Source: an uncultured Methanosarcinales archaeon
Lineage (GTDB): Archaea > Nanobdellota > Nanobdellia > Woesearchaeales > UBA525
DNA: 34,172 bases
Assembly: GCA_964540015.1 (NCBI GenBank)
Contig: CAZIKW010000002.1
Location: forward strand, 1 to 34,172
Reading direction: 5' to 3'
Shown: piece by piece, positions 729 to 32,682 of the stretch
Numbering within the stretch: the stretch's first letter is position 1
Layout: each line of letters starts with the position of its first letter
Made by a program: the position numbers and the translations under genes
The notes under the pieces: generated by a model
Told to the model about the DNA's origin: nothing
What the model saw: only the letters and a program-made list of their open reading frames with translations
Database searches by the model: none

Positions 729-1289
729 ATGGATCCCTTCACCGCAGCATTCCACGAGAGTATCGATGAGAAACAACTGCGTGAGCTCTACAAAATCGTT
801 TCTGATATCGGTTGCGAAGAGATCTTCCTCATGGGCGGGATGGTATATCGGAACATCATACAGACGATGTATGGCAAGAAATGCCCCGATGTGGATTTCG
901 ATTTCATCGTCGATACACTTCCTGAACCGCTGCAGATTCCCGGTTGGACGGTTACGAAAAATCGGTTCGGGAGTCCGAAGCTATCACGAGACGGTACATT
1001 CGTCGACATCTCGCCGTTACGAACCATGCCCTCGATAGTGCGTAAAGGGTGGCAACCGACGATAGAGAACCATCTTCTCGGGTCGCCGTTGAAACTGCAA
1101 TCGATGGTGTACTCCTTCACGCAAGATCTCGTTATCGGAGAAATAGGCAAACAAGCAATACTGGATCGTACAGTATCCGTGCATGACAAGAGCGAAGCGG
1201 AGAATGCCGCGATGAAGAAAGGGCTTTCTCTTCATGACTTCATCAAACAAAAAGCGCAAAGCGTTGGGTTCACGCCAAGTTACGACTGA
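729..1289 (+). CDS. Small nucleotidyltransferase-fold protein (Pol-beta superfamily-like)
   Basis: 186-aa ORF with 'LMGGMVYRN' followed by 'PDVDFDFIV' (G[GS]...DxD NTase signature, laid out like the head domain of CCA-adding/poly(A) polymerase enzymes). Its 3' end overlaps the convergent Lrp gene by 20 nt. Confidence 0.5.
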   Translation: MDPFTAAFHESIDEKQLRELYKIVSDIGCEEIFLMGGMVYRNIIQTMYGKKCPDVDFDFIVDTLPEPLQIPGWTVTKNRFGSPKLSRDGTFVDISPLRTMPSIVRKGWQPTIENHLLGSPLKLQSMVYSFTQDLVIGEIGKQAILDRTVSVHDKSEAENAAMKKGLSLHDFIKQKAQSVGFTPSYD

Positions 1290-2259
1290 GCACTGCTGCA
1301 GCACGATCGCGCAACACCGGTATCAGGTTCGCGGGCAGCGGCTCCACCTTGAAGTAATCGGCCGCTTGCAGTATCTCGACGCGCGCGGCGGCATCACGTT
1401 CTGCGATACGGCTCGTGAACGCGAACAACGGTCGTTGGTCCGGCGGCATATAGAACATGAACAATCCGTCGTGCGTCTCGTAGATGAAACCACTGTAGGG
1501 GTCTGAACGTAAGTACGGAATCATCGATTTCTTTGAGGACGGCGAGAGCTGCAGCTTCACGAAATAGACGAGCATGCCCATCTTGAAGACATTGATGCCG
1601 TAACGGAATTTCAGTATCACGCCGGATTGCTGCAGCGCCGCAATCCGAAGGCGTACGGAGTTCCTGTCGATGCCGGTTCGTTCGGCGATCTGCGAGAACG
1701 TGCTAAGAGGGTTCTCCGCGAGGTGGGCGAGGAGTTTGTAGTCGGACGGCCGTAGCGCTATCGATCCGCGTTCGGGGAGCGGAATCGGCCGCAGATCGAG
1801 ATGGTACGGGTTGTAATCGTCGGGGATGAATCGCGTGATACCATGCACGGTGAAATGCGCGTCCGCGAGATGGTCTTTGCAGAACGCATCCAAATCAGCC
1901 GTGCTGACGATAAGGAGGTATTGGTTGCGGCTGAGGATACGGAAGTACATGATGAGCGCCGGGTTCTCAAGGAGCGCATCGGCGGCTTCTTGCTCCAGGC
2001 GCTCCACAAGAATGACGGCGTTCTGGAATCCGAGCATGACCAAGTCGAGGTTCATGGCTGGCGAGAGGATCTCCGTTAGCAGCCTGCGCACCTTGTAATG
2101 CACCCGCTCAGGCGAGATGCGAAGGGATTTCGCGAGCTTGCGCTGCGGCATACGCAAGTCTTGCGACAGGTGATAGATGAGCTTCTTATCGTAGATATCG
2201 AGCTTGATCGGTGTCGACGTGTTTTTCGCGATGACGACCATTTTATCGTACAAATGCAT
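1270..2259 (-). CDS. Tandem (duplicated) Lrp/AsnC-type HTH transcriptional regulator
   Basis: 329-aa ORF with two HTH segments ('DKKLIYHLSQDLRMPQRKLAKSLRISPERVHYKVRRL' and 'DYKLLAHLAENPLSTFSQIAERTGIDRNSVRLRIAALQ'), each followed by a RAM-like region. The TATA-like 'TTTATAAG' (complement of 2263-2270) is only a few nt from the 2259 ATG, so the in-frame Met at 2241 (MVVIAKN...) may be the leaderless start. Confidence 0.7.
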   Translation of the reverse strand: MHLYDKMVVIAKNTSTPIKLDIYDKKLIYHLSQDLRMPQRKLAKSLRISPERVHYKVRRLLTEILSPAMNLDLVMLGFQNAVILVERLEQEAADALLENPALIMYFRILSRNQYLLIVSTADLDAFCKDHLADAHFTVHGITRFIPDDYNPYHLDLRPIPLPERGSIALRPSDYKLLAHLAENPLSTFSQIAERTGIDRNSVRLRIAALQQSGVILKFRYGINVFKMGMLVYFVKLQLSPSSKKSMIPYLRSDPYSGFIYETHDGLFMFYMPPDQRPLFAFTSRIAERDAAARVEILQAADYFKVEPLPANLIPVLRDRAAAVLSRNLA

Positions 2260-2311: not shown

Positions 2312-2348
2312 ACTTCTTGAAAGCACTCCTTCTTGTCAGGTGATACAC

Positions 2349-2612
2349 ATGCCAACGACGAACAACGGGTCCAGAGGCGTTCCCCGCTACGAATGCACGG
2401 GCGCGAACAACGGATCCTTCGGAATGCCCCGCCACGATACCGCGGGCGCAAATACCGGATCCTCAGGAGTGCCGCGCAAGCCGACAGAGGAGTCCTCTGA
2501 GAACGCACACGCGTCACCGCTTGAGACCACGGTCGAACGCGAGAGTGTCCGACGCGATGCTACGCGCGATTCCACGACCGTTTACGGCGAACCAACGCGC
2601 AAGTACGAGTAA
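2349..2612 (+). CDS. Small ORF (87 aa) with three tandem 15-aa repeats N-x-G-S-x-G-[VM]-P-R; candidate precursor peptide or orphan protein
   Basis: ATG 2349 (alternative GTG 2340) to TAA 2610-2612. Third-position GC is high, as in neighbouring genes. The repeat copies differ by synonymous changes at conserved Gly and Pro codons (GGG/GGA/GGA, GGC/GGA/GGA, CCC/CCC/CCG). It ends 37 nt before the radical-SAM start, which has its own GGGGG ribosome-binding site. Confidence 0.35.
   Translation: MPTTNNGSRGVPRYECTGANNGSFGMPRHDTAGANTGSSGVPRKPTEESSENAHASPLETTVERESVRRDATRDSTTVYGEPTRKYE
2361..2495 (+). repeat. Degenerate 45-bp tandem repeat, about 2.6-3 copies
   Basis: Copies at 2361-2405, 2406-2450 and 2451-2495. 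By hand alignment, copy 1 vs copy 2 matches at 32/45 positions, and copy 2 vs copy 3 matches at 21 of the first 27 positions before decaying. Confidence 0.8.
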
Positions 2613-2649
2613 ATCCTTCTTTTCTTCATATCACATAGGGGGTTGAACG

Positions 2650-3846
2650 ATGCGCGAGACCACACAGAATGCTGCCGCGACGTGGCTTGCTGCCATACCA
2701 GAACTCGCAAAGCAAGAGCGTGTGACATCAACCGATATCGACGAGTGCATCGAGAACTTCTCACACAGCCTATTGCAGAAGGAACCGCCGCAGCTCGTCA
2801 ATGCGCTTCTTGAGCGCGCGTGCAATCTCCAATGCACGCACTGCCTGCTTCCTGCGCATGCGGGAACGACGAGCATCTCAAAAGCAGCAGGGCTTGATCG
2901 CATCCTCGAGAATCTCGTGACGCAACTCGGCGAAGTACCCGCCACGGGCAACGGGTGGGCTCCTGCATTCCTGCACGAAGGGCGCATCGTGCGACCGTGG
3001 CATCTCGAAGTCATGGCGCGGCTCAAGGAATCCGCTCCGAAGGTCACGTACGGTCTTATCGATAACGGCTCCTATACGCAACTCTTGCGGGAGTTTTCCC
3101 GATATCGCATCCAGCTCGATTGGCTCGACATCTCCTGCGACGGCACGCGCGAAAGCCATAACGCGCAGCGTGATCCTCGCGGAACATCGTACGATGCAGT
3201 ATTGAATGGCCTCGCGCACGCGAGAGAGATCGTGAAACCGCAAGGTAGGGTAACCTCACTTATGACGCTCACCTCACTCAACTATGCCGATATCCCCGCG
3301 GTCGCGGAGACACTTCTCGGCTGCTCGCTCGTCGATGAGTTGCATGTCACCACGATGAGCCCGAAACTCACCGTGAATTACACGATCGATCTGGAGCAAC
3401 GGCAAGTCGCAACGGCGTTCGAAGATGTCGTGAAGCTCTCACGCGAGCAACGCGTGTATTTCCGCCTATACAACACGAAGCATCTCGGATATATCGCCAA
3501 GCACGTTGGGCAAACGGCGATGCAGACGGCGTTCACGAAGGCCACTGCCTATGACCACGGCATCATCGGCCTCCCTATCGAAGGCATGGTTGTGTACTAC
3601 GCACCGAGCAGCCTCTGGCCAGCGGAAGGCATTTTCGTCGACGTGAACGGTGCGCAGCGCGTCGCGTACGCGCAAGGCAACACGCTCGCGCAACTGGAAG
3701 ACCCCGTGCACGAGACGTATACGGTGCAGCAACTGACGCCGAACAGTTCTCTGATGGACGCGCACACCGCGAGCGTGCGGCAGTGGGCAAATCATTTCAT
3801 GAAGGGTTTTGTCAAGCAGGAAATAGCAATCTTGGCGGGGATTTGA
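2650..3846 (+). CDS. Radical SAM enzyme (no obvious SPASM/B12 domain)
   Basis: 398 aa. 'ERACNLQCTHCLL' contains the CX3CX2C radical-SAM cluster motif about 60 aa from the N terminus. 'GGGGG' lies 7 nt upstream of the ATG. Confidence 0.8.
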   Translation: MRETTQNAAATWLAAIPELAKQERVTSTDIDECIENFSHSLLQKEPPQLVNALLERACNLQCTHCLLPAHAGTTSISKAAGLDRILENLVTQLGEVPATGNGWAPAFLHEGRIVRPWHLEVMARLKESAPKVTYGLIDNGSYTQLLREFSRYRIQLDWLDISCDGTRESHNAQRDPRGTSYDAVLNGLAHAREIVKPQGRVTSLMTLTSLNYADIPAVAETLLGCSLVDELHVTTMSPKLTVNYTIDLEQRQVATAFEDVVKLSREQRVYFRLYNTKHLGYIAKHVGQTAMQTAFTKATAYDHGIIGLPIEGMVVYYAPSSLWPAEGIFVDVNGAQRVAYAQGNTLAQLEDPVHETYTVQQLTPNSSLMDAHTASVRQWANHFMKGFVKQEIAILAGI

Positions 3847-3897
3847 GGTACCGGGGTTAACAGCGCGTGGTGAGATACACCACCAACACTCATCATA

Positions 3898-3905
3898 TTT
3901 ATATA
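3898..3905 (+). promoter_or_regulatory. TATA box for the Nudix gene (leaderless arrangement)
   Basis: 'TTTATATA' centred about 28 nt upstream of ATG 3929. Confidence 0.55.
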
Positions 3906-3928
3906 CGAAACCCGACTGCCATCACGTT

Positions 3929-4399
3929 ATGAAAAACCGTATCCGCGTTGGCGTTTTTCTCTTCAAAGACCACAAGGTATTGCTCATCAAACACGTCAAT
4001 CCCGAAACGGGCGAGACGTGGTGGGTCCCTCCGGGCGGCGGTATCCAGGGGGCAGAAAGCATCTTTGAAGCCGCGAAGCGCGAAGCGAAGGAAGAAGCGA
4101 ACCTCGATATCGAGACGGGCAAGGTCTGCTACGTCCGTCAATTCATCTACGAAGAGTTCGACCAGAACAATGCCGATTTCTATATCACGGCCAAAGTCGT
4201 CGGCGGAGACGAGCACATCGGGAATCTCAAGGGAATGGGCGGCGACGAGCACTTCATCAAGGAGCTCAAATATTTCTCGCAAAAGGAAATCGCGGACATC
4301 ACTGTCTATCCATCCGTACTACGCGACATCGTCTGGCAAGATCTCGCGAAAGGATTCCCGGAACTGAAATTCCTCGGCGTACAGGCACAGGGCGATTAG
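3929..4399 (+). CDS. Nudix hydrolase
   Basis: 156 aa. Canonical Nudix box 'GGGIQGAESIFEAAKREAKEEANL' (GX5EX7REUXEEXGU). Confidence 0.85.
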   Translation: MKNRIRVGVFLFKDHKVLLIKHVNPETGETWWVPPGGGIQGAESIFEAAKREAKEEANLDIETGKVCYVRQFIYEEFDQNNADFYITAKVVGGDEHIGNLKGMGGDEHFIKELKYFSQKEIADITVYPSVLRDIVWQDLAKGFPELKFLGVQAQGD

Positions 4400-5004
4400 C
4401 GCTGCAATACGAACGCCAGGAATTGGTATCCGTCGATATCGAATTGCGATTGGAGACGTTGCCACTCGCTCGGTTCGTGATGGAAGCCGAATTCATCAAC
4501 GATACGCGCTACTGGTGAGAGGATGTTTCGCCATTTCCGCGCAGTCAGGAATCGCTCGTCACCGTAGGTGCGTTGATCATCGCGATACTGGCGCGACGGA
4601 ATAGAGACGATGACTGTCTGCGCCACACGCAACTGCTCGCGAGCATACACGCGGATACGGTCATCACTGAAGTGCTCGAGAACGCCGTTACTGAAGCTGA
4701 CATCGAAGGTATCTGCGGGGAACGGCAACGCCCCTATATCGCTGACGATTGCAGGAATACCGATGACGTGCTTCGCGAGCAATACGGTGCGATGGTCGCT
4801 ATCAACGCCCAACGCCGGTATTCCTTGTGCTTGTAGGAACGCGATCGACGTCCCCGTGCCGCATCCCGCTTCAAGTACAAGCCCGTTGTTTTGGTGCTCC
4901 ATCACTTTCTCCAAGAGTGGCAGCTTGTACGTCGTTTTCTCCCGTATGATCTGCGACACACTGCGGTCGAGCAAATAGCTCTCATGGATAGTGGACCAGT
5001 TCAT
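4396..5004 (-). CDS. Class I SAM-dependent methyltransferase
   Basis: 'VLEAGCGTGTS' SAM-binding motif I and 'NGVLEHF' post-II motif. The start at 5004 (MNWSTIH...) forms an ATGA overlap with the upstream kinase stop. The ORF track's 5019 start is an in-frame alternative. Confidence 0.85.
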   Translation of the reverse strand: MNWSTIHESYLLDRSVSQIIREKTTYKLPLLEKVMEHQNNGLVLEAGCGTGTSIAFLQAQGIPALGVDSDHRTVLLAKHVIGIPAIVSDIGALPFPADTFDVSFSNGVLEHFSDDRIRVYAREQLRVAQTVIVSIPSRQYRDDQRTYGDERFLTARKWRNILSPVARIVDEFGFHHEPSEWQRLQSQFDIDGYQFLAFVLQR

Positions 5005-5585
5005 CGGAGCACCATACAAACGGCAGATATCACGTCGACTGATCCCGTATCCACAATCGCCAACGCTTGCTCGAGAACACGGTCTGCATCCTGTGAAGCG
5101 TCGATCATGGAGAGAGGTACACGTTCAGCGAGTCGACCATAGAACTCATTCACCGCGTTCACGTAGGTCACATCGTAAAAAATCGCTGCAGTGCCTTTTG
5201 GAGTTTCCCGCTCGCCACGCAATGCTCGTCGTCTCACCAGCTCGCTTCCACCAACAAGCACGATCCTACACGGTGGACTGATGGGATTGCTCGTTTGCAG
5301 CCAATCGGAAAATGGGCGTCGCATATCCTCGAGACCACACGCGTGTGCCGCGTACGTATGCGCGGCAAGAGAAAGGATGCTACGATCCAGCACCGCATCA
5401 TGCACCACGGTTTTAGCGCGGCGGAGCTCAGCGTCGAGATAGGCCTCGTGGATTTCCCAAACTGATCCTACGCGTTCACGCACGAACGCGCTATGCTCAG
5501 GTACGAATACGTATCCTTTCCGACCAGCCAGCGCGCGCGCAAGGGTCGTTTTTCCTGTATAGACATTACCGTCGATCGAGATCAT
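5001..5585 (-). CDS. P-loop nucleoside/nucleotide kinase-like protein (dNK/dTMP-kinase fold)
   Basis: 'ISIDGNVYTGKTTLARAL' Walker A at the N terminus and 'LDRS' (equivalent of the ERS motif of deoxynucleoside kinases). The start at 5585 forms an ATGA overlap with the stop of the upstream radical-SAM gene. Confidence 0.65.
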   Translation of the reverse strand: MISIDGNVYTGKTTLARALAGRKGYVFVPEHSAFVRERVGSVWEIHEAYLDAELRRAKTVVHDAVLDRSILSLAAHTYAAHACGLEDMRRPFSDWLQTSNPISPPCRIVLVGGSELVRRRALRGERETPKGTAAIFYDVTYVNAVNEFYGRLAERVPLSMIDASQDADRVLEQALAIVDTGSVDVISAVCMVLR

Positions 5586-6436
5586 AGGGCGAGCTTGCAC
5601 CTCTTGCAAATCTCCGGCGAGGGCGTGTTAAGGTCGTACACGGCTGTTCTCGCCGCCGTATATTCTGGAGACCACCAGATATCCGCAAGCGACTGCTGTG
5701 TCGCATTGCCGAGGATTTGCGTCTTTCGCCAATCTTGGCAGCACAAGATAGCGTTGCCATCGACATCGATATGCATGCGCTCGATCGGGCGATGCTGCTC
5801 GCAACCGCGCGTTTTCGGTTTCCACGTGGCATTCGTGTATTTATCGACATTCCCGGCGCGATCGAGGAACCCCCAGTGATGGAATATGATGCCGTTCTGC
5901 TTGCAGTAACTTGTCGCCGCCTCGACCTCTTGCGCAGACGCGGCCGGATGATCGATCATGATAAGGCTGAGATCGCCCACCGACCGACGGAACGCATCGT
6001 CATGGACGGTCTCCTCCAAGCGTCGCCAAGCGCGTTCCCAGTTCAATCCGGGCATAACGGACTCGTACGACGATTTCGTAAAACCGAAGAAGCTCATGCG
6101 GAAATCGTTAATCGCCAGATCCGTTATTTGTTGTCGCTTCTTCTCTGTGAAAGGAGAGAGATTCGTGGATATTTCTATCATCGAGGATGGATATAACTCG
6201 CGTATGGAGCGCACTATCTCTGGGAAGCGCGGATCAAGGAACGGCTCGTTATTGAGATATGGGATAATCCGTTCAATGCCACCGAGTTGCGATAGGATGT
6301 GTTCCAATAGTCCGGCATCCATGAGTTTCGTTCCGTACTCCGCCGCCACATCCGGATGCGGACAGATGGTGCACGCGGCATTGCAATGGCTCGCCGTCTG
6401 GATCTCTATTGCTCGAGGTCGCGGAGGAACGTTCAT
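5582..6436 (-). CDS. Radical SAM enzyme with C-terminal twitch/partial-SPASM-like Cys motif
   Basis: 284 aa. 'SHCNAACTICPH' (CX3CX2C) and 'LNNEPFLD' (GGEP-like). The C terminus has 'C-X14-G-X4-CC' plus 'CKRC'. ATGA overlap with the upstream B12-rSAM stop (6433-6436). Confidence 0.8.
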   Translation of the reverse strand: MNVPPRPRAIEIQTASHCNAACTICPHPDVAAEYGTKLMDAGLLEHILSQLGGIERIIPYLNNEPFLDPRFPEIVRSIRELYPSSMIEISTNLSPFTEKKRQQITDLAINDFRMSFFGFTKSSYESVMPGLNWERAWRRLEETVHDDAFRRSVGDLSLIMIDHPAASAQEVEAATSYCKQNGIIFHHWGFLDRAGNVDKYTNATWKPKTRGCEQHRPIERMHIDVDGNAILCCQDWRKTQILGNATQQSLADIWWSPEYTAARTAVYDLNTPSPEICKRCKLAL

Positions 6437-8055
6437 TCGATCCCCTCCTTGCCCGTGAACACTTCCCGGATAGGTCGGCTACCGCATACTTTCGTGATAT
6501 CATCGACGAGCATGCCCCATATCACCGCGAGTTCAGCGCCATGGTCAGCAAGCACCCTATCGTGTTTCCTGAACGCCTCGAGGATCATTTCCGGGTCTGC
6601 TCCGCTTGCCGCCGCATCATACGCATCGATAAGTGCAGCATACACGAGCTCATCCGTGCGCGCATACATTTCGTCGAAGCGGGCAGCGAGCGCCTTGACC
6701 TCCTCGGTATGCTGCGGGCAAGCGCGTTGCGCGATCGTAGTGAGGAGCCGCCCGCTGACGCAATGATATTCGAGGAAATATCCTTTTGATGTTTCGAAGA
6801 ACGTGCGAACGGCATTGAAGAGCGCTTCTGTATCTGCATGCTTCCAGGAGTAGCCGTAAATCAGATCCCGGTACGTCGTACCCCACACCATGCCGGTGGC
6901 TTTGAGGTCTTCAAGCAGGCGAGAGCCAGGGACAAGCCTGGGCGCCTCGATGAGGACGCCGAGCCGGCACAGCTTCTGGATGGAGTGGAGATACTCGATA
7001 TTGCGGCGGATATCCTTCAAAGGCGCCGTCGGTTCGAACGTGATAAAACCGAGGTGGACATTTACACCGTGCTCGTGTAATGTTGTCCACGTCCTGTCAG
7101 CCATGGACGGGGTAATCATCTTATTGAACGTGACTAGACTATCTTGCGCGTTATTTTCCACACCCAAAAATACCCTGACTAGTCCTGCACGCACCAGCAA
7201 GTCCAGAAGCTCTGGGGAAGGGAACGGGTTACAGCGCAAGTAGACATAGAAATGAATATCGAGCTTCCGTTCAAGCAATTCTTCGCAGATCTGACGTATA
7301 CGTTCATCGTCAAAGGGACCAGACCAGAACATCGGATCATTGAAAATAAAGAGCGTTTTCCCGTACCGTTCCTTGATCTGCTGCACCTCATCAACAAGAT
7401 GCTTCGCGCTGCGCACGGGCCGTCGCGTACCTCTCTGCTGAGCGTGATATATGGGGACATGGCAGAAGCTACAATTGAACATGCAGCCGCGCGACGCCTC
7501 GATATTGACATACCCTACCTTCTCCTTCTCCTCGATATCGCGTGCGGGGAACGGCATATCATCAGGTAGCGTCGCCATCATGCGTTTCCCCGTGTCAACA
7601 ATTTCTCCCGATGGCATACGCCAGAGCCCACCCACACAGTTCGCATCCCACGCCAGTGCCGCATCCATGGAAGCGAGAAGCTCGCACGCCGTCTCTTCCG
7701 GATACCCATACAGGATCCCATCGAGCCATTCCTGTTCCGCGAGAATACCTTGCGCGTTCATGCTCGCGAACGGTCCGCACAAAAAGACACGTTTCACCGC
7801 ACCATGCGCCTTCGCGGCTCGGAGAAGCGGGAGCAACTCCGCGTAATCCTTGAAGTTCGGCTTCGCGATAATGATGTCCGGCGATCCCCGTACGATATTT
7901 TTTGCGCTATCGAGCGCACCGCGTTCAAGGAGACACTGCTCGACAGCATAGTTCGCTTGTCGTAGGAACGCCGCCACATATCCCATCGTCAGGGACGCCG
8001 CCGATTGGGAGTAGAGCGTGCGATAGAACACGAGCTTAACGCGTAACAAGAGCAT
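6433..8055 (-). CDS. B12-binding-domain (class B-like) radical SAM enzyme
   Basis: About 540 aa. The N-terminal ~170 aa form a Rossmann-like region typical of cobalamin-binding rSAMs, followed by 'EASRGCMFNCSFCHV' (CX3CX2C). GGAGGTG lies directly upstream of ATG 8055. The exact start is uncertain (GTG 8058, ATG 8055 or TTG 8049). The 5' end overlaps the GT2 3' end. Confidence 0.85.
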   Translation of the reverse strand: MLLLRVKLVFYRTLYSQSAASLTMGYVAAFLRQANYAVEQCLLERGALDSAKNIVRGSPDIIIAKPNFKDYAELLPLLRAAKAHGAVKRVFLCGPFASMNAQGILAEQEWLDGILYGYPEETACELLASMDAALAWDANCVGGLWRMPSGEIVDTGKRMMATLPDDMPFPARDIEEKEKVGYVNIEASRGCMFNCSFCHVPIYHAQQRGTRRPVRSAKHLVDEVQQIKERYGKTLFIFNDPMFWSGPFDDERIRQICEELLERKLDIHFYVYLRCNPFPSPELLDLLVRAGLVRVFLGVENNAQDSLVTFNKMITPSMADRTWTTLHEHGVNVHLGFITFEPTAPLKDIRRNIEYLHSIQKLCRLGVLIEAPRLVPGSRLLEDLKATGMVWGTTYRDLIYGYSWKHADTEALFNAVRTFFETSKGYFLEYHCVSGRLLTTIAQRACPQHTEEVKALAARFDEMYARTDELVYAALIDAYDAAASGADPEMILEAFRKHDRVLADHGAELAVIWGMLVDDITKVCGSRPIREVFTGKEGIE

Positions 8056-9271
8056 CACCTCCAGGAGTGCGTTGTTTTTTTAGCGATCTACCAGTCAGGG
8101 CACGCCATACGAGGCGACCAAGAGCGTGATACGCCGCGAGGCCATGAATCAGGTAGAAGAGCGGTGCGCCGATAAGCCCGCTCCAAAAGACCGATGATCG
8201 TTTCGCCATCGTTCGCCATGCCATCTCGTTGAGAAGTGGTAAGTAGAGGATAGTGGTGAGGATAGCCAGAGATATTGTTGTTTTTCCCGAAAATACGAAT
8301 GCGGCAACAAGCAAGGTGGGGCCCATAATCCAATAGAGTGCGTGGCTCAGTAATTGCATACTACGCAGAAAGGCTTTCGCTCTATGTCCGTGCTTCGCCG
8401 CAACGATACGGTAATAGCGCGGCGCTTCTAAGGGGCCAAAATACCAATTGCTTTGCTGGAGGAAGAGCCCACGAACCGTTCCTGCGGTTTCTGCTTGGTC
8501 AAAGCAAGGGAGAGGATGGATAGGAATATTCAGAACGTTGAGGGCGAGACCGAAAATCGCATCCTCATTATGCATGTTTTCTCGGAACCCTCCGACGATA
8601 TCGTATACTTCGCGCGTAAAGAACAGACCGTGACCAATACAGTAATTCATGGACTTCCATCGAGTGAACTGATCTAGCGCGTGAGGGATTTCAAAACCCA
8701 CGCTCCAACGATTTTGCCACGCGGCGGCAGAAGCGAGAATAAGACCGCGTATACTCTTTGCGGGATGCAATCCTCGAGAGTAATCTCCGTATTGCTGACA
8801 AACACGAGCTCCTGTGCGAACGAGACCAGCGACATATCGCAACGTTCGCGGGTCCGGTCGGCTATCCGCATTGTACACGCCAAACACGTGTTTTGGAGGT
8901 TTGTTGAGCGTGCGAACCGCATAATTGAGCTGATGCGCCATTTTCGTCCCCGTGCCCGAATAGTGGAGGTGCTTCACTCGCCGATGCCGTCGTGCCAAAG
9001 CCCGGGCGATTGTCAGGGTGGTGATTTTCCCTTTCGGCTCTCGCGCGGTCGTTACCAGAACAATTTTGGCACTTGGGAAGTGCTCAAGAAAATAGGTTAC
9101 CGTTGCCTCTAATCGGGCAGTTTCTTCCAGGCACGGAATAAGTAATGTGCATGCTATCGGCCTGTCAGATGCGTGTTTTTGCGCGAGCCATCGTTTGGTG
9201 CGCCCTATCTTCCACATCCAATGAAGACCAACCGCAAGAAAGCCGACACAGAGGAGAGTGGTGATGATCAT
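8036..9271 (-). CDS. Membrane glycosyltransferase family 2, processive-type (QxxRW)
   Basis: 411 aa. N-terminal TM helix, 'YNADSRPD' (DxD-like), 'NEDAIFG' (ED) and 'WQNRW' (QxxRW motif of processive beta-glycosyltransferases), plus C-terminal TM helices. ATGA overlap with the upstream kinase stop (9268-9271). Confidence 0.8.
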   Translation of the reverse strand: MIITTLLCVGFLAVGLHWMWKIGRTKRWLAQKHASDRPIACTLLIPCLEETARLEATVTYFLEHFPSAKIVLVTTAREPKGKITTLTIARALARRHRRVKHLHYSGTGTKMAHQLNYAVRTLNKPPKHVFGVYNADSRPDPRTLRYVAGLVRTGARVCQQYGDYSRGLHPAKSIRGLILASAAAWQNRWSVGFEIPHALDQFTRWKSMNYCIGHGLFFTREVYDIVGGFRENMHNEDAIFGLALNVLNIPIHPLPCFDQAETAGTVRGLFLQQSNWYFGPLEAPRYYRIVAAKHGHRAKAFLRSMQLLSHALYWIMGPTLLVAAFVFSGKTTISLAILTTILYLPLLNEMAWRTMAKRSSVFWSGLIGAPLFYLIHGLAAYHALGRLVWRALTGRSLKKQRTPGGDALVTR

Positions 9272-9870
9272 TGTCGTTCCATAATGTGCGCGTACGCAAT
9301 CGTTTTCACTTCTTTCGGGGTCAGATGCGTCGTATCGATATGGAGGTAGTTGGGTGAGATGGAAACGAGACCGGAAATGCGCGCATCCATCTGCTCAATG
9401 ATGTGTGTAGGCTCAAGAGGGTGGCTTGAACGATTTCTTTGCCGGATGCGCTCAAGGCGCACGGCTCGATCGGCAGACAGAAAGATGGGGATGTCAAAGT
9501 GGTACAACTCCGGTTCGTGCGCAACGAGACGTTCAGCGACGTCAGGCATACCGTGAGTTTCACAAAACGCAATGACCCGTTCCCAATACGTATCCTGTAG
9601 AAGAAATTGCGGCACGTCGGCGATATGAGGATGGTACTCTTTTGCGTCTCTGAGGTATGCGTCCACCAGGAGATAATTCGCGTCTTGCTGGCGGCTTACG
9701 TCACCGCTCGCGAGCATTTTGAGCGCGGTGCGCATTTCGACCGTCTTACTGAGATCGAACTTATTGCGAAAGGGGATTCCATCCTCTGAAAGCAGATCGT
9801 AGAGATTGTCGATAAGCGTCGTCTTTCCGGCACACGCGGTGCCGGTGATGAGGACGCTGACAAGCGGCAT
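9268..9870 (-). CDS. P-loop kinase-like protein (second dNK/NMP-kinase-fold gene)
   Basis: 200 aa. 'VLITGTACAGKTTLIDNL' Walker A at the N terminus and a 'RLERIRQR' lid-like basic segment. First gene of the minus-strand operon. Confidence 0.6.
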   Translation of the reverse strand: MPLVSVLITGTACAGKTTLIDNLYDLLSEDGIPFRNKFDLSKTVEMRTALKMLASGDVSRQQDANYLLVDAYLRDAKEYHPHIADVPQFLLQDTYWERVIAFCETHGMPDVAERLVAHEPELYHFDIPIFLSADRAVRLERIRQRNRSSHPLEPTHIIEQMDARISGLVSISPNYLHIDTTHLTPKEVKTIAYAHIMERQ

Positions 9871-9890
9871 ACGACAGGGGTTGAGGCGCG

Positions 9891-9899
9891 ATTAATATA
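9891..9899 (-). promoter_or_regulatory. TATA box for the minus-strand six-gene operon
   Basis: Complement reads 'TATATTAAT', centred about 25 nt upstream of ATG 9870. Confidence 0.5.
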
Positions 9900-9930
9900 C
9901 ACTGCTATTCCTGGGGAAAGACAACATTCT

Positions 9931-9938
9931 TTTTATAT
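9931..9938 (+). promoter_or_regulatory. TATA box for the K+ channel gene
   Basis: 'TTTTATAT' centred about 28 nt upstream of ATG 9963. Confidence 0.55.
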
Positions 9939-9962
9939 GGCCGTCCACCACCATTCATACAC

Positions 9963-10766
9963 ATGCCCCACTGGCGAGAACGGCTGCACACCGTCGTGTT
10001 CGAGGCGGACACCACTGCCGGCAAGACATTCGATATCGTCGTTATCGCAAGCATCCTTCTGAGTGTCCTCGCCGTGATGCTCGAGACGGTGCCATCGATA
10101 CGCGATGGGCCGTACGGCCACACCCTCATTCTTGTCGAATGGTCGTTCACGATCCTCTTCACTATCGAGTACCTGCTGCGCCTGATTGCCGTGAAACAGC
10201 CGATCCAGTACGCGCTCAGCTTCTATGGCCTCGTGGATCTCTTCGCGATCCTGCCCACGTATCTGAGCCCCTTAAGCCCAAACGCACCAGCATTCCTCGT
10301 GCTGCGTATGTTGCGCCTGATGCGATTGTTCCGGGTGTTTAAGCTAGGTAAATACGTCCTCGCCGCCCACGCGCTCGGTCACGCGCTACGCGAGAGCCGG
10401 CGGAAGATTCTCGTGTTCCTGCTCGGCGTGATCGCTATTACGACGGTCAGCGGCGCGATGATGTATCTCGCTGAAGGCCAACAACCTGGCTTTGACAGTT
10501 TGCCCGAGAGCATGTACTGGGCGATCGTCACGCTCACGACCGTTGGTTTCGGAGATGTCGTGCCCGTGACCACACTCGGAAAAGTCCTCGCTTCACTCCT
10601 GATGATTTTCGGGTTCGGTGTGATAGCGGTGCCGACAGGCATCGTTTCAGCCGAGCTCGCGCGCGCTGATATGCGCCGCCTCACCACGCAAGCATGTCGT
10701 GCGTGTATGAGTGGCGATCACGCGCATGATGCGGCATTCTGTCGTCGTTGCGGCGAGAAATTGTAA
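9963..10766 (+). CDS. Voltage-gated-type K+ channel (6TM) with C-terminal zinc-ribbon
   Basis: 'TLTTVGFGDV' K+ selectivity filter. S4-like 'LRMLRLMRLFRVFKLGK' with a basic residue every third position. C-terminal 'CRAC...CRRC'. Confidence 0.85.
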   Translation: MPHWRERLHTVVFEADTTAGKTFDIVVIASILLSVLAVMLETVPSIRDGPYGHTLILVEWSFTILFTIEYLLRLIAVKQPIQYALSFYGLVDLFAILPTYLSPLSPNAPAFLVLRMLRLMRLFRVFKLGKYVLAAHALGHALRESRRKILVFLLGVIAITTVSGAMMYLAEGQQPGFDSLPESMYWAIVTLTTVGFGDVVPVTTLGKVLASLLMIFGFGVIAVPTGIVSAELARADMRRLTTQACRACMSGDHAHDAAFCRRCGEKL

Positions 10767-12349: not shown

Positions 12350-12421
12350 AGCGCCCGCCCAGATTTGAACTGGGGAATGATCGCTCTGCAGGCGATTGCC
12401 TTACCGCTTGGCTACGGGCGC
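12350..12421 (-). tRNA. tRNA-Cys (GCA)
   Basis: Hand-folded 72-nt cloverleaf: acceptor GCGCCCG/CGGGCGC, anticodon stem ATCGC/GCGAT with loop CTGCAGA, T arm CCCAG-TTCAAAT-CTGGG, discriminator U. No CCA is encoded. Confidence 0.9.
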
Positions 12422-12453
12422 GCTATAATTAGGAGACGGAACCCCGACGGTCC

Positions 12454-12460
12454 TTTAAAA
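12454..12460 (-). promoter_or_regulatory. TATA box upstream of tRNA-Cys
   Basis: Complement reads 'TTTTAAA', about 36 nt upstream of the mature 5' end. Confidence 0.5.
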
Positions 12461-12630
12461 GAGTTTCCCAGGCGAATCCCTAGAGTGTTCACTCCCGCGG
12501 ACCGCTGCAGGCGATACTGTTCACGACGGGTTTCGGAATACCGCACAGTCGGTGTAACCGACACGGCATCCTCAGAGGGAAAGCCAAGGCAAGTGAGTAT
12601 GCTGTGCGTGGCAGCCTACAGATTTCTCGA

Positions 12631-12705
12631 CGGACCCGAGGAGATTCGAACTCCCGACCTACGCCTTAGAAGGGCGTCGCTCTATCCAAGCTGAGCTACG
12701 AGTCC
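12631..12705 (-). tRNA. tRNA-Arg (UCU)
   Basis: Hand-folded 75-nt cloverleaf: acceptor GGACTCG/CGGGTCC (one G-U pair), D arm GCTC-AGCTTGGATA-GAGC, anticodon stem ACGCC/GGCGT with loop CTTCTAA, T arm GGGAG-TTCGAAT-CTCCT, discriminator G. No CCA is encoded. Confidence 0.9.
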
Positions 12706-12733
12706 AGGTTGGGGATGAGCACCCGAACAGTGC

Positions 12734-15063: not shown

Positions 15064-15891
15064 ATGGCAGAGCATTTCATCATCGATTTCGACGGAACAC
15101 TGACGAACACAGAGCTCGAGGCGAAGCCATGCGTCGACGCGTTCCCCGATATCCTGTCACAGAAAATAAGCCAACCACGTATCGTCATCGACGCATTGGC
15201 AGCGCGATTCAGCGCACAAGTCGCGCAGGACCCGACAAGCGGATGGATGAACGACGGAAAGATCGTCGCTCCTGCAGTGGTGGATCCATACGTATTCGCA
15301 ACGACCGTGTACGGCAAGGTATACGAGGAGTTGTGCGGATCACAAGGGCGTGATGCGACGCTCGCCGATGTCTTCAAAGAGGCGTATCCGAAATCCACAA
15401 CAGCGTTCCATCCCGGCGCGGACGGGTTCTTACGCGAGCTTTCGGATCAGTATGAAGCAGTCATCGTCACCAATTCAGCAACTGATGCAGTGCAGCGAAA
15501 GCAGGAGCAATTGCTCGGCCGCGGATGCCTCCTCCAGTGCGTTCGAGTGCTTGGTAACGCGAAGAAGTACGTGATCGATGACACGTGGGACGCGATCCCG
15601 GAAACGATCACGCTCAAGGACGCTCCACGACCGACATTTTTACGACGGAAGAAATACGCCGATGTCATCGCGAGCCTCAACTGGGATCCCGCGCAAACAA
15701 CGGTTATCGGTGATGTGTACGAACTCGATCTCGCGATGCCGGAACAACTGGGATACAAGACCATTCACCTCGTAAACGAGCGAACGCCCCAGTGGGAATT
15801 GACGCATGAAGCGGCTGGTCGATACGTCGCGCACGGATACGATGATGCACTGCGGCACATCTTCGGTATGCGGATCAAGTCACTCGGATAG
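15064..15891 (+). CDS. HAD-superfamily hydrolase
   Basis: 'IIDFDGTLTN' (motif I, DxDxT), 'VTNS' (motif II) and 'GDVYELD' (motif IV). ATG 15064 is preceded by GGTGG. Confidence 0.8.
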   Translation: MAEHFIIDFDGTLTNTELEAKPCVDAFPDILSQKISQPRIVIDALAARFSAQVAQDPTSGWMNDGKIVAPAVVDPYVFATTVYGKVYEELCGSQGRDATLADVFKEAYPKSTTAFHPGADGFLRELSDQYEAVIVTNSATDAVQRKQEQLLGRGCLLQCVRVLGNAKKYVIDDTWDAIPETITLKDAPRPTFLRRKKYADVIASLNWDPAQTTVIGDVYELDLAMPEQLGYKTIHLVNERTPQWELTHEAAGRYVAHGYDDALRHIFGMRIKSLG

Positions 15892-15935
15892 TAAGAGGTA
15901 TCCCCAATCCCCAATCGCATCTATCGACGGAATAG

Positions 15936-15943
15936 TTTATAAA
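15936..15943 (+). promoter_or_regulatory. TATA box for the ABC transporter operon
   Basis: 'TTTATAAA' centred about 26 nt upstream of ATG 15966. Confidence 0.55.
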
Positions 15944-15965
15944 CCGATTTCCGGAAGGGAATACG

Positions 15966-16949
15966 ATGGACGCCATCGCCGTCAAGGATCTCTCGAAGAT
16001 ATTCCGTACGAAGATCAAGGAGCCAGGTCTTCGCGGCAGCGTCAAGAGCTTGTTCTCCCCCGTATACCGCGAGACGCGCGCCGTCGATGGCATATCATTC
16101 TCCATTCCCAAAGGGCAGCTCGTCGGGTTCATCGGGCCTAACGGCGCGGGCAAGAGCACGACGCTCAAAATCCTCACCGGCATCCTCTTCCCGACGAGCG
16201 GTGACGCGGACATCGTAGGCATGGTGCCATGGAAGGCGAGAAAGAAACTCGCGTACAAGATCGGCACGGTCTTCGGCCAGCGCTCGCAGCTATGGATGCA
16301 TCTGCCGGCGCAGGATTCCTTCGATCTGTTCGCTGCCATCTACGACCTTGAGGAAAACGACTACCGCAAGCGATTGCAAGGCCTCATCGAAGCGTTCGAT
16401 ATCAAGGAATTCCTCGACGTGCCGGTGCGCAAGCTCTCGCTGGGCCAACGCATGCGCTGCGAGCTCGTCGCTGCGCTGCTCCACAGGCCCGAGATCCTGT
16501 ACCTCGACGAACCGAGCATCGGCCTTGACATCCTCGCGAAAAAAGCGCTGCGCGAGCACATCCTGCGCATCAACAAAGAAGAGGGCGTCACCGTCCTGTT
16601 CACGAGCCATGATATGAGCGATATCGAAACGGTATGCGAACGCGTCATCGTGATCAATCACGGCAAGATCGTCCATGATTCGAGCGTGGAGGACATGCGC
16701 AAGCAATACCTGCGGCGTAAGCTCGTCTCGATCGCGTTAAGCAAACCGGCTGCGCCGCCAAAGCTCAAAGGCGTCACGGTGCTGCCTTCGGGGAAAGGAG
16801 AGCTCAAACTCGCGGTCGACATCCAGCAAGCGGATCTGAAGAAAGTGCTCTCGCACATCGCTGAGCAGTACACAGTCCAGGATATCGATATCGCTGATCC
16901 GCCAATTGAGGAAATCATCGAGGCCATGTACATGAGGCCGAACGCATGA
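15966..16949 (+). CDS. ABC transporter ATP-binding protein (ABC-2 type, COG4586-like)
   Basis: Walker A 'GPNGAGKST', signature 'LSLGQRMR' and Walker B 'ILYLDEPS'. A C-terminal extension is present. Confidence 0.9.
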   Translation: MDAIAVKDLSKIFRTKIKEPGLRGSVKSLFSPVYRETRAVDGISFSIPKGQLVGFIGPNGAGKSTTLKILTGILFPTSGDADIVGMVPWKARKKLAYKIGTVFGQRSQLWMHLPAQDSFDLFAAIYDLEENDYRKRLQGLIEAFDIKEFLDVPVRKLSLGQRMRCELVAALLHRPEILYLDEPSIGLDILAKKALREHILRINKEEGVTVLFTSHDMSDIETVCERVIVINHGKIVHDSSVEDMRKQYLRRKLVSIALSKPAAPPKLKGVTVLPSGKGELKLAVDIQQADLKKVLSHIAEQYTVQDIDIADPPIEEIIEAMYMRPNA

Positions 16950-17728
16950 ACGCCTATCTGGCGCACTTCCGCACCACCGTCAAGGAAGATGTGCGTTACC
17001 TGTTCACGGATACGTTCCTCGGATGCTTCGCCGTCATCGGATTCATCGTCCTCATGCTCTTATTTTGGGCAGCGACAGGCCAAACGCTCTTCTTTGGCCT
17101 CTACACGTGGCCGATGATGGTGTGGTACGTCATCATCGTTGAGGTCATACTCAATGGACCACCGGATACGATCAAGATCGTGAACGCGCACATCCAGGAG
17201 GGGACGATCGTCACGATGCTCACGAAACCGCTCCATTACCTACCGACGATGGTCGCGATGCATATGGGCAAGACGCTCGTGACCATACCCGTCATGATAC
17301 TGATGACCGCGCCGATCGGGCTGTTTTTGGTCGGGACGGCGGGGCTTTCCCTCGGAGGCATTGCGTTCGGCGCCCTCGCCGCGCTGCTTGGCATCCTTAT
17401 CGATTTCATGCTCTCGCTGTGCATCGCGCTGATCGCATTTTGGACCGAGGACTCGACTCCGTATCGCTGGGTATACGGCAAGATCCTCTTCCTTTTCGGC
17501 GGCCTCATCTTCCCTCTCGATGTACTGCCCTCTGGGCTTGCCGCGATCGCGAAATTGCTGCCGCCGGCGTACATCCTCTACCATCCTGCCCGCCTCGCGG
17601 TCGATTTCTCGTGGAGCATGCTCGGGAGCGTGCTTATCGGCCAGATAGCATACCTCGTCGCGCTGTGCGCGCTCGCCATCTTCATCTATCGTCTCGGCAT
17701 CCGCAAGGTGAGTATCAATGGGGGCTAG
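16946..17728 (+). CDS. ABC-2 family transporter permease
   Basis: 260-aa polytopic membrane protein. ATGA overlap with the ATPase stop. Confidence 0.7.
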   Translation: MNAYLAHFRTTVKEDVRYLFTDTFLGCFAVIGFIVLMLLFWAATGQTLFFGLYTWPMMVWYVIIVEVILNGPPDTIKIVNAHIQEGTIVTMLTKPLHYLPTMVAMHMGKTLVTIPVMILMTAPIGLFLVGTAGLSLGGIAFGALAALLGILIDFMLSLCIALIAFWTEDSTPYRWVYGKILFLFGGLIFPLDVLPSGLAAIAKLLPPAYILYHPARLAVDFSWSMLGSVLIGQIAYLVALCALAIFIYRLGIRKVSINGG

Positions 17729-19489: not shown

Positions 19490-19528
19490 ATCCCAAAAGG
19501 CGAGCAGGAGCGGTTCTTAAAGGTTGCT

Positions 19529-25566: not shown

Positions 25567-25571
25567 ACCAC

Positions 25572-27921: not shown

Positions 27922-27926
27922 TACCT

Positions 27927-32659: not shown

Positions 32660-32661
32660 GG

Positions 32662-32682
32662 TTCGTGTAGCCTAAGCACAAA
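32662..32682. promoter_or_regulatory. Degenerate copy of the palindrome (TTCGTGT-N7-GCACAAA) upstream of the NrtR-like gene
   Basis: It matches the 25172 site at 6/7 and 5/7 positions in the two arms with identical 7-nt spacing, about 33 nt upstream of ATG 32715. Confidence 0.25.

Follow-up and report, generated by a model that had tools for sequence, protein, structure and literature searches.

A rare cassette with OxsB-like and BtrN-like radical SAM enzymes, possibly for a remodelled nucleotide, in tiny archaeal and bacterial symbionts

Among the genes flagged in the window (the whole stretch of DNA that was analysed, 34,172 nucleotides), seven make up the cassette proper: six minus-strand genes between 4396 and 9870, and a convergent Nudix gene (3929–4399). 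The cassette is rare, and is common to tiny symbiotic archaea and bacteria. Our preferred reading, to which we give a little less than an even chance, is that genes 3929–9870 form a horizontally spread cassette yielding a radically remodelled nucleotide. A preliminary description of this DNA recognized no characterised pathway here, and we found none either: every flagged gene scores below the curated NCBIfam equivalog cutoffs, PADLOC matches are weak, and we did not find a published account of the cassette in the literature.

Neighbouring minus-strand genes (4396–9870, n = 6) overlap by 4–28 nt, and the overlap of all six suggests translational coupling. The reported stop-codon overlap at 4396–4399 is present: the TAG of the Nudix gene is at 4397–4399 and the TAA (reverse complement) of the methyltransferase gene is at 4396–4398. 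Two putative promoter elements were located from the sequence only: a TATA-like box TATATTAA (9892..9899, minus strand; 22–29 nt upstream of the start codon of kinA), which is a candidate archaeal promoter for the six-gene operon, and a TATA-like ATATTTATATA (3895–3905; 24–34 nt upstream of the Nudix ATG).

Each of the eight domain calls of the preliminary description was recovered in Pfam; its cluster of nine genes, however, does not hold. No related locus has a homolog of the plain radical SAM gene (2650–3846, plus strand; Pfam Radical_SAM, 31 bits), which was therefore ruled out as a cassette member; it comes from a different, small family whose genes adjoin wHTH regulators in CPR genomes. 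The ORF at 2340–2612 is doubtful as a ninth gene, as it has no family match and is mostly a 45-bp tandem repeat. The tandem Lrp/AsnC-type regulator described nearby (1270–2259, minus strand) indeed has two AsnC-type HTH domains (HTH_24/HTH_AsnC in Pfam). In a Woesearchaeota locus (L013, which lacks rSAM1), a strong homolog of it (HMM, 583 bits) immediately precedes the cassette and is co-directional with it. Such a regulator may control the cassette in archaea, but the link is weak (the pairing is met in only two loci).

We counted partner genes in 25 non-redundant loci, archaeal and bacterial, anchored on the gene for the cobalamin-type radical SAM enzyme (B12-rSAM). The hosts include Woesearchaeota, many Patescibacteria (CPR bacteria), gut Firmicutes, Bacteroidota, Verrucomicrobiota and the cultured Paenibacillus tyrfis. 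Conservation of the neighbourhood, on which the preliminary description had made its case depend, is strong across archaea and Patescibacteria. The main partners are found in 21–25 of the 25 loci but are essentially absent (roughly 0 out of 41) from control loci with paralogous B12-rSAMs, which puts their adjacency far from chance. CPR and DPANN organisms rely on nucleoside salvage, so genes for dNK, NMP kinase, NDK and Nudix proteins are expected in them, and one could think of accidental adjacency or of housekeeping salvage genes lying beside unrelated radical SAM and GT2 genes. This explanation is extremely improbable and already contradicted by the loci: apart from the empty controls, the partners recur in Firmicutes, Bacteroidota, Verrucomicrobiota and Paenibacillus, all with full nucleotide metabolism, they persist through rearranged gene orders and as fusions, and the cassette genes overlap. 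Bacteroidota and Verrucomicrobiota have a minimal variant (Nudix-kinA-B12-kinB), in which GT2 and the twitch radical SAM gene are replaced by a gene of the beta-RFAP-synthase family (TIGR00144 at 169 bits; the cutoff is 113.5). This family converts PRPP to a ribosyl-5'-phosphate C-glycoside.

The anchor gene (6433..8058, minus strand; Pfam Radical_SAM, 60 bits) encodes an OxsB-like radical SAM protein with a cobalamin-type domain. Its Pfam B12-binding match is sub-threshold, but the B12 Rossmann fold is upheld by a structural model (AF2, pLDDT 92.7); the domain order is a Rossmann domain, a radical SAM barrel with C192xxxC196xxC199, and a C-terminal helical bundle. The family profile (A1) has OxsB as its best PDB match (5ul2, 1.4e-23), followed by MgmA (1.7e-12), and Foldseek with the model also found OxsB (5ul4, 3.4e-22, TMq 0.66, 627 columns). 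By analogy, this kinship suggests that the enzyme may remodel a ring. Full-length orthologs are scarce (only ∼45 clusters among 1.84 billion representatives), and the closest plasmid paralog (32% identity) is within a pseudaminic/nonulosonic-acid sugar cluster. To our knowledge AprD4, which has a similar domain, is reported not to use cobalamin.

The second radical SAM enzyme (5582..6436, minus strand; Pfam Radical_SAM and SPASM, SPASM 49.7 bits) is found in 22 of the 25 loci, co-varying with GT2. It had been called twitch/SPASM-like, and the Pfam matches agree; a full SPASM domain, however, is not present, as the family alignment (A5) has C18xxxC22xxC25 and only four invariant C-terminal Cys, so the domain is twitch-like. 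Among PDB entries, its profile matches BtrN best (4m7t, 1.1e-25; the next is YydG, 1.6e-8), which by analogy suggests oxidation of an alcohol to a ketone. The chemistries proposed earlier for the radical SAM enzymes were C-methylation, C–C bond formation or epimerisation.

The cassette encodes two P-loop kinases. The first operon gene, kinA (9268..9870, minus strand; Pfam Thymidylate_kin, 28.9 bits, and AAA_18), encodes an NMP-kinase-like protein, whose profile (A6) matches an archaeal adenylate-kinase-like protein (4cvn, 5e-17), a CMP kinase (3r8c, 1e-11) and TMK (5xbh, 2e-10). It has orthologs in 10 of the 25 loci, and in 10 CPR loci (including the rearranged L010 and L016) an NDK gene occupies its slot upstream of GT2. 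The other kinase gene, kinB (5001..5609, minus strand), is found in 25 out of 25 loci, in some as two to three copies or fused, and in most it is adjacent to the B12-rSAM gene or one gene off; two loci (L007 and L029) have three tandem copies together with IMPase-like and HAD phosphatases. The Pfam match of kinB (dNK/AAA_28) is weak, but its family profile confirms the deoxynucleoside-kinase family, matching Mycoplasma dGK (2jas/2jaq, 6e-9, full length), dNK (8puu/1j90) and NDUFA10; the conserved motifs (A2) are DGNVxxGKT, E38, D75-R76-S77 and the lid residue R128. The Nudix pyrophosphohydrolase (3929..4399, plus strand; Pfam NUDIX, 55.7 bits) has orthologs in 21 of the 25 loci (HMM, 150–190 bits), likewise convergent in L001, L003 and L013. 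The class I SAM methyltransferase encoded by the last operon gene (4396..5019, minus strand; Pfam Methyltransf_25/11) is an accessory member, with orthologs in eight of the 25 loci. A non-orthologous methyltransferase is found at a different position in L003. Four results lend further weight to the nucleoside- or nucleotide-derived intermediate suggested earlier: the dNK and NMP-kinase types, the NDK slot, the OxsB kinship and the beta-RFAP-synthase variant.

The remaining gene (8036..9271, minus strand; Pfam Glyco_tranf_2_3, 35.7 bits) encodes an integral-membrane GT2-like synthase of a narrow family (∼110 matches), with orthologs in 21 of the 25 loci and nearly always linked with a P-loop kinase and the twitch enzyme. 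Its architecture is that of NodC/HAS/BcsA, with a GT-A domain after a single N-terminal TM helix, then two interface helices, and three TM helices at the C-terminus. The AF2 model (pLDDT 93.8) matches BcsA (5ej1, 1e-11), PcManGT (6yv7) and the Chlorella virus hyaluronan synthase (7sp9, TMq 0.64) in Foldseek. The fold thus bears out the processive type proposed earlier, but the QxxRW motif cited for it does not: the canonical site, after N-E-D237 (TED-like), reads Q272-Q-S-N-W276, its Arg not being conserved. Conserved motifs are YNAD136S, WQNRW189 (W185-Q-N-R-W189 is invariant), IGHG215, NED237 and Q272xxxW276.

The substrate, the order of all steps, the product and the biological role are what we infer from the observed folds and families, gene coupling and co-occurrence. 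On the preferred reading, kinB would act on a (deoxy)nucleoside or a nucleoside-like glycoside, phosphorylating its 5'-OH. The OxsB-like enzyme would take a sugar hydrogen from this 5'-phosphate substrate and rearrange or alkylate the sugar ring (the model is OxsB and AlsB acting on dAMP/dATP), and the BtrN-like enzyme would turn a secondary sugar alcohol into a ketone. The methyltransferase, in loci having one, might tailor the product, which kinA (NDK in Patescibacteria) would bring to the di- or triphosphate. The Nudix protein would be the counterpart of OxsA, removing pyrophosphate for product release or detoxification, or to return the NMP to the pathway. GT2 might glycosylate the compound or its carrier and move the compound across the membrane, or else build the glycoside on which the other enzymes act.

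Known nucleoside-analogue pathways make no use of a membrane GT2 of the HAS/NodC type, and this model explains GT2 poorly. It is possible, though unlikely, that the two radical SAM enzymes and the methyltransferase carry out keto formation and C-methylation on an NDP- or NMP-activated sugar, and that GT2 polymerises this sugar or transfers it to the cell surface. Recycling the NDP/NMP freed by the glycosyltransferase could then be all that the NDK and NMP kinases do, with Nudix policing the nucleotide carrier, which would matter in organisms of minimal nucleotide metabolism. The GT2 fold with its TM helices favours such glycan tailoring, as does the kinase or NDK gene that directly precedes GT2 in most loci and also in Serratia (L074); BtrN and AprD4, structural or sequence neighbours, work on carbohydrate or cyclitol rings. 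A Risungbinella locus (L075), lacking B12-rSAM, couples a GT2-like gene and an adjoining twitch radical SAM ortholog (35% identity) to NDP-sugar genes (NTP_transferase, epimerase/dehydratase and SDR) and to ATP-grasp; the NDP-sugar genes and the paralog in the nonulosonic-acid cluster fit nucleotide-sugar rather than nucleotide chemistry. But none of ∼21 window-type loci has a sugar-1-phosphate nucleotidylyltransferase, dehydratase or other sugar-activating enzyme, and the minimal variant retains B12-rSAM, both kinases and Nudix while having the beta-RFAP-synthase-family gene instead of GT2. Moreover, the ubiquitous dNK-family kinase has no role in NDP recycling, and OxsB is nearer than sugar- or peptide-acting B12-rSAMs by 11 orders of magnitude.

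Alternatively, the chemistry of the preferred reading might give a chain-terminating or otherwise toxic nucleotide analogue, resembling those of prokaryotic viperins with kinases, or oxetanocin, for antiviral immunity or for attacking hosts or competitors; we regard this as improbable. The patchy occurrence across domains points to horizontal transfer, and some neighbours would suit such a role: L005 is within an ICE and borders on relaxase and T4CP genes, a TIR-like gene and a methylase-helicase fusion, P2-like tail and lysis genes directly precede L007, and L075 and L003 adjoin an R-M system and a PemK toxin, respectively. The sole PADLOC matches are to PDC-M51 (PDC-M51A/B, a two-gene candidate of a B12-type radical SAM and a kinase) and the viperin-associated kinase VakA, but at no more than 41 bits, and PDC-M51 is itself unvalidated. 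No orthologs were found in 2.9 million IMG/VR contigs, INPHARED phages or PLSDB plasmids, and defence-island context is missing at most CPR and DPANN loci. We know of no nucleotide-based defence system featuring a membrane GT2.

Viperins and PDC-M51 share with the cassette a radical SAM enzyme encoded beside nucleotide kinases; however, the matches to PDC-M51A/B and VakA are far below family level, viperins are not of the cobalamin type, and these systems lack GT2, Nudix and a second radical SAM enzyme, all found in the cassette. NodC, class I hyaluronan synthase and BcsA have, like GT2, a GT-A domain between TM helices, interface helices, and DxD-like (NAD136S) and TED-like (NED237) motifs; GT2 differs by the non-conserved Arg of QxxRW, the extra WQNRW and having only four TM helices. 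BtrN, the 2-deoxy-scyllo-inosamine dehydrogenase of butirosin biosynthesis, is similar to the 5582–6436 protein in size (∼250–290 aa), CxxxCxxC motif and small C-terminal domain with four conserved Cys, but the cassette context, unlike that of BtrN, has no 2-DOS genes and no aminotransferase. Albucidin biosynthesis in Streptomyces (AlsB/AlbB and AlsA/AlbA) also pairs an OxsB-like enzyme with a second radical SAM enzyme, acting on dAMP (PMC13331322, PMC7074753), and the cluster table has a thymidylate-kinase gene nearby (PMC7074753); AlsA, however, is biotin-synthase-like rather than BtrN-like, and that cluster lacks GT2 and Nudix. OxsB of the oxetanocin pathway is the nearest solved relative of the anchor protein by profile and by fold (Rossmann domain, radical SAM barrel and C-terminal helical domain), but the two are only ∼16% identical, the cassette protein lacks the OxsB N-terminal domain, and its cobalamin binding is predicted. 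OxsB, working with the phosphohydrolase OxsA, takes deoxynucleoside 5'-phosphates (dAMP/dADP/dATP; PMC13331322), and in the cassette a dNK-family kinase is usually encoded adjacent to the B12-rSAM. Both systems partner the radical SAM enzyme with a nucleotide phosphohydrolase (Nudix in the cassette, HD in OxsA), but the cassette further comprises two or three dedicated kinases, a BtrN-like enzyme, an optional methyltransferase and a membrane GT2, and it is found in CPR/DPANN and diverse anaerobes, whereas oxetanocin is encoded on a Bacillus plasmid (Bacillus megaterium).

An ORF map combined with Pfam and NCBIfam scans reproduced every domain call made in the preliminary description. On the plus strand there are genes for a plain radical SAM (rSAM) protein (rSAM1, 2650-3846) and a Nudix hydrolase (3929-4399). 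On the minus strand there are genes for a class I methyltransferase (MT, 4396-5019), a P-loop kinase (kinB, 5001-5609), an rSAM protein with a SPASM-type C-terminal domain (twitch rSAM, 5582-6436), an rSAM protein with a B12-type N-terminal domain (B12-rSAM, 6433-8058), a membrane GT2 glycosyltransferase (GT2, 8036-9271) and a TMK-like kinase (kinA, 9268-9870), as well as a tandem AsnC/Lrp regulator (1270-2259). The six minus-strand genes from MT to kinA overlap one another by 4-28 nt, and the stop codons of the two convergent units overlap as had been noticed (Nudix TAG at 4397-4399, MT stop at 4396-4398). TATA-like boxes precede kinA (9892-9899) and the Nudix gene (3895-3905) at archaeal promoter distance and, judged from sequence, are candidate archaeal promoters. 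The unit, described as nine genes between 2340 and 9870, has to be reduced: none of 30 related loci encodes an rSAM1 homolog, elsewhere rSAM1 is never found with the other genes, and the ORF at 2340-2612 was not counted, as it has no family match and consists mainly of a 45-bp tandem repeat. We refer to the genes at 3929-9870 as the cassette. The repeat (2361-2477; 2.6 copies, 73% match) fills the region between the Lrp and rSAM1 genes, and a 90-aa ORF spanning it has no family matches; the repeat could be a set of regulator-binding sites.

Homologs of B12-rSAM (35-57% identity) are found in Woesearchaeota and in many Patescibacteria (CPR), on contigs with the same neighbours. Scanning one genome per species yielded 66 loci, about 23 of which encode full-length family members; the remaining loci, whose B12-rSAM proteins are distant paralogs, provide an internal control. 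Iterated HMMs built from the window proteins were run against the ORFs of every locus. Of the 25 non-redundant family loci, all have kinB, 22 have twitch rSAM, 21 have GT2, 21 have Nudix, 10 have kinA and eight have MT; the few loci without GT2 or twitch rSAM are contig-edge cases or belong to a minimal variant. The same HMMs gave a total of one Nudix match and one SPASM match in 41 control loci. The neighbourhood conservation proposed earlier as a check on the cluster is therefore borne out, with partners that recur in the family loci and are nearly absent from the controls; this recurrence excludes, for practical purposes, a chance adjacency of the cassette genes, which we regard as extremely improbable. 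The linkage of the cassette genes and their family assignments are established. In 10 independent Patescibacteria loci an NDK gene is directly upstream of GT2; the slot it takes in CPR loci is the slot of kinA in archaeal loci, and it is kept also where gene order is rearranged. The orthologous B12-rSAM family is rare (∼45 full-length clusters at 50% identity among 1.84 billion representatives). Its carriers include one cultured strain, Paenibacillus tyrfis Q-3-15 (locus L018), as well as gut Clostridia, Bacilli and Mollicutes-like MAGs, Prolixibacteraceae and Verrucomicrobiae.

The rSAM1 family has 32 proteins; apart from the window protein, a Patescibacteria genome is the only source that is named. 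Three CPR contexts were checked, and in two of them (L077 and L078) rSAM1 directly adjoins a divergent gene for a TrmB-type winged-helix regulator; in the window, rSAM1 and the tandem Lrp gene are divergent; rSAM1 and its regulator look like a separate regulator-plus-rSAM module. A Woesearchaeota locus (L013), in which rSAM1 is absent, has a strong Lrp homolog directly upstream of the cassette, so the tandem Lrp may serve the cassette in archaea (judging from two loci). A 385-aa neighbour in L013 was considered as a possible rSAM1 and turned out to be a PPAT/CoaE fusion. A second nucleotide-related operon of the window (25563-33395, plus strand) encodes NAPRTase, NAD synthase, a radical SAM protein, an ADP-ribosylglycohydrolase and an NrtR-type regulator; its rSAM gene (29572-30786), the fourth of the window, is unrelated to rSAM1, and an rSAM in an NAD-salvage/ADP-ribose operon is unusual. 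Other genes of the window include a PAC2 gene (30-713) and tRNA-Cys(GCA) and tRNA-Arg(TCT) genes (12350-12706, minus strand), 2.5 kb past the cassette. Together with the best homologs, the PAC2 gene hints that the window is of archaeal and probably DPANN origin.

The 6433-8058 protein scores 60 bits with Pfam Radical_SAM and 18 bits with B12-binding (below the cutoff of 32), and the three cysteines of its radical SAM cluster motif (CxxxCxxC; C192, C196 and C199) are invariant among 22 family members. A single-sequence PDB search ranked OxsB and 9ccb, an MCR glutamine methylase, equally. The family profile gave 1.4e-23 for OxsB vs 1.7e-12 for the methylase. A Foldseek search with the AF2 model (pLDDT 92.7; Rossmann domain at 6-130, helical bundle at 408-531) placed OxsB at the top (3.4e-22, TMq 0.66, 627 columns aligned), followed by TsrM, AprD4, MgmA, TokK and CysS, all at 1e-16 or weaker. 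We accepted the link to OxsB because it was set apart from 9ccb both by the family profile and by the fold search; at the level of the predicted fold, B12-rSAM would have OxsB-type Rossmann and C-terminal helical domains. It lacks, however, the extra N-terminal domain of the four-domain OxsB/AlsB architecture: it has 541 aa (vs 744 for OxsB), and the profile alignment starts at OxsB residue 138.

For the twitch rSAM, the top PDB match of the family profile is BtrN (4m7t; 1.1e-25, 93.6 bits), aligned in two stretches of which one is C-terminal (220-284); the runner-up has 1.6e-8. The only invariant cysteines of the C-terminal domain are C212, C232, C277 and C280; the seven-Cys SPASM pattern is not there, and so few cysteines fit a BtrN-like single auxiliary [4Fe-4S] site. 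In sequence the protein is BtrN-like across both the core and the auxiliary-cluster domain. kinB belongs to the deoxynucleoside kinase (dNK/dCK/dGK) family: its profile has full-length matches to deoxyguanosine and deoxynucleoside kinases (2jas/2jaq, 8puu and 1j90), and 19 sequences share P-loop residues G14, G19 and K20, E38, D75-R76-S77 and the lid residue R128, while a single kinB sequence scores 19 bits with Pfam dNK, below the cutoff of 27. The kinA profile finds adenylate-kinase-like proteins of archaea as well as CMP and TMP kinases.

The AF2 model of GT2 (pLDDT 93.8) shows a GT-A domain, two interface helices and four TM helices, one of them N-terminal and the other three C-terminal; Foldseek matches of this model include BcsA (1.3e-11), Chlorella virus hyaluronan synthase (TMq 0.64) and a Pyrobaculum membrane mannosyltransferase. 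GT2 is predicted from this model to share the architecture of processive membrane synthases (BcsA/HAS/NodC/chitin synthase). DxD-like (NAD136S) and TED-like (NED237) motifs are present. The QxxRW motif reported for this protein could not be upheld, nor the full D, DxD, TED, Q(Q/R)xRW signature: the corresponding site is Q272-x-x-x-W276 with a variable Arg position, and an invariant WQNRW motif is specific to this GT2 family. The family is narrow (∼110 database matches, with a sharp cut-off). Two further candidates were set aside: a putative kinase–GT2 fusion (P0202), whose kinase similarity could not be demonstrated, and a divergent GT2-like protein in L081, which adjoins rSAM genes that are not orthologous.

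Gene content varies among the loci. The minimal variant, found in Bacteroidota/Verrucomicrobiota (L005, L019 and L020), has the order Nudix-kinA-B12-rSAM-kinB and then a gene of the beta-RFAP synthase family (169 bits vs the subfamily cutoff of 113.5); both GT2 and the twitch rSAM are absent from it. Enzymes of the beta-RFAP synthase family use PRPP to form a ribosyl-5'-phosphate C-glycoside, and the minimal variant therefore points to a nucleotide-like substrate. Across loci GT2 and the twitch rSAM co-vary, and the cassette looks like two modules: a nucleotide module (B12-rSAM, kinB, kinA or NDK, and Nudix) and a sugar/membrane module (GT2 and twitch rSAM). In gut Firmicutes kinB is larger (∼380 aa). 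L007 and L029 have three tandem kinB copies plus a further P-loop kinase, and IMPase-like and HAD phosphatases; the twitch rSAM, B12-rSAM, GT2 and an HSP70/ASKHA-like gene are also present (L007, 2878-12231), and HSP70-like genes adjoin the cassette in four loci. A Serratia locus (L074) has a P-loop kinase and GT2 followed by an ABC exporter and a PAP2 phosphatase; this kinase was rejected as kinA, the similarity being confined to the P-loop. In Risungbinella (L075), B12-rSAM is absent, and GT2 is accompanied by an ortholog of the twitch rSAM (35% identity) and by genes for NTP_transferase, epimerase/dehydratase, SDR and ATP-grasp proteins. This variant, the fold of GT2, the precedents set by BtrN and AprD4 and a B12-rSAM paralog located in a sugar cluster would all suit tailoring of an NDP-sugar for a surface glycan; but the cassette has no sugar-activating enzyme, its minimal variant does without GT2 and its dNK-type kinase is universal, and we consider this alternative possible though rather unlikely.

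The surroundings of individual loci vary as well. In P. tyrfis the cassette is preceded (3976-10001) by genes for an acyl-CoA-dehydrogenase-like protein, two NTP_transf_5 nucleotidyltransferases, a threonine-aldolase-like PLP enzyme and a 329-aa protein, and followed (15259-16347) by a gene for a 362-aa protein with faint HPr-kinase-like signals; it may be part of a larger biosynthetic cluster. A DrrA-type ABC ATPase and an ABC2_membrane_6 permease are encoded 3 kb downstream of this cassette (18676-20452), and the same pair is found in the window (15966-18497, plus strand), 6 kb from the cassette; the pair may be the product exporter, or a coincidence. In L003, two 369-aa GAPDH genes (3959-5068 and 16185-17294), each after a large minus-strand ORF, flank the cassette and perhaps represent a duplication tied to its insertion; a PemK toxin gene is inside the flanked region. 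In L005 (6844-11224) the minimal variant is within an integrative conjugative element, with a relaxase, T4CP, a group II intron RT, a TIR-like gene and a fused methylase-helicase as neighbours. The L007/L029 cluster directly follows P2-like tail and lysis genes.

Such mobile or defence-like contexts, seen at a few loci, could indicate a function in defence or antagonism, by a chemistry compatible with nucleotide remodelling. PADLOC and PHROGs gave only weak or generic matches to the cassette. The only PADLOC matches of its proteins are weak ones, to PDC-M51A and PDC-M51B (24.8 and 18.7 bits for the window proteins, 40.7 and 28 bits for the best relative, L005) and to VakA. The pVip/viperin models were matched by rSAM1 alone, which is outside the cassette (14-18 bits vs NCBIfam cutoffs of 180-450). 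Against such a function, most CPR loci have no defence context, and viral and plasmid collections hold no orthologs; we regard it as unlikely. A phage origin was rejected on the searches of IMG/VR and INPHARED, which hold no orthologs, and a plasmid origin on that of PLSDB, which yielded only paralogs of 26-32% identity (the context of a Rhizobium paralog was uninformative).

The best-supported analogy for the cassette chemistry is a parallel with oxetanocin and albucidin biosynthesis. In the former, OxsB works with the phosphohydrolase OxsA on dAMP/dADP/dATP; in the latter, AlsB and a second rSAM work on dAMP (PMC13331322, PMC7074753). By this analogy we infer the substrates, the order of steps and the product. 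The dNK-like kinase kinB would make a 5'-monophosphate, whose sugar would be remodelled by the OxsB-like enzyme; the BtrN-like enzyme would then oxidise a ring hydroxyl, MT would tailor the product, kinA or NDK would phosphorylate it further, and the Nudix enzyme would remove pyrophosphate. GT2 might glycosylate and translocate the product, the weakest step of this model, or it might make the glycoside on which the pathway starts; the latter would explain why GT2 and the beta-RFAP-synthase-like gene are mutually exclusive. As a tentative reading, plausible but short of probable, we propose an undescribed pathway found mainly in ultra-small episymbionts (Patescibacteria and Woesearchaeota), which would exchange it with bacteria of gut and sediment. 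OxsB-like and BtrN-like enzymes would build a non-canonical nucleotide, the pathway's own kinases would raise it to the triphosphate and a dedicated NodC/HAS-like membrane enzyme would receive it; the result would be a secreted antimetabolite or a surface glycoconjugate of a new, nucleotide-derived class, used in symbiont–host or virus–host interactions. CPR bacteria and DPANN archaea have small genomes that seldom keep dispensable multi-enzyme pathways, which points to a role for the cassette in their life as symbionts or in resistance to viruses.

The earlier statement that the gene set matches no known pathway stands: none of the genes reaches an NCBIfam equivalog cutoff, the matches (including hopanoid HpnJ/HpnR, BchE, BzaD, ladderane-lipid, MCR-methylase, PhpK and RiPP models) all being below it, and the cassette is therefore outside every rSAM pathway curated in NCBIfam. 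No description of this gene set turned up among curated families, among defence models or in the literature, within a literature coverage that is incomplete and leaves room for an earlier description. The cassette is directly testable, given the cultured carrier P. tyrfis Q-3-15 and a four- or five-gene minimal variant small enough for reconstitution. Oxetanocin A was the lead compound from which antiviral nucleoside drugs were developed; albucidin is a herbicide. Remodelling of the sugar ring of a nucleotide by an OxsB-type enzyme is known from only two natural pathways, those to oxetanocin and to albucidin (PMC13331322). The partners of OxsB/AlsB are the HD-domain phosphohydrolase OxsA and the BioB-like rSAM AlsA, neither of which is found here; the cassette has a Nudix hydrolase and a BtrN-like twitch rSAM instead. 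We rate OxsB-type remodelling of nucleotides as already known, and the partners, the membrane step and the unusual host range as new. Beside the two known pathways, the cassette would be a third and much more widespread OxsB-type branch, with kinases and a membrane partner of its own.
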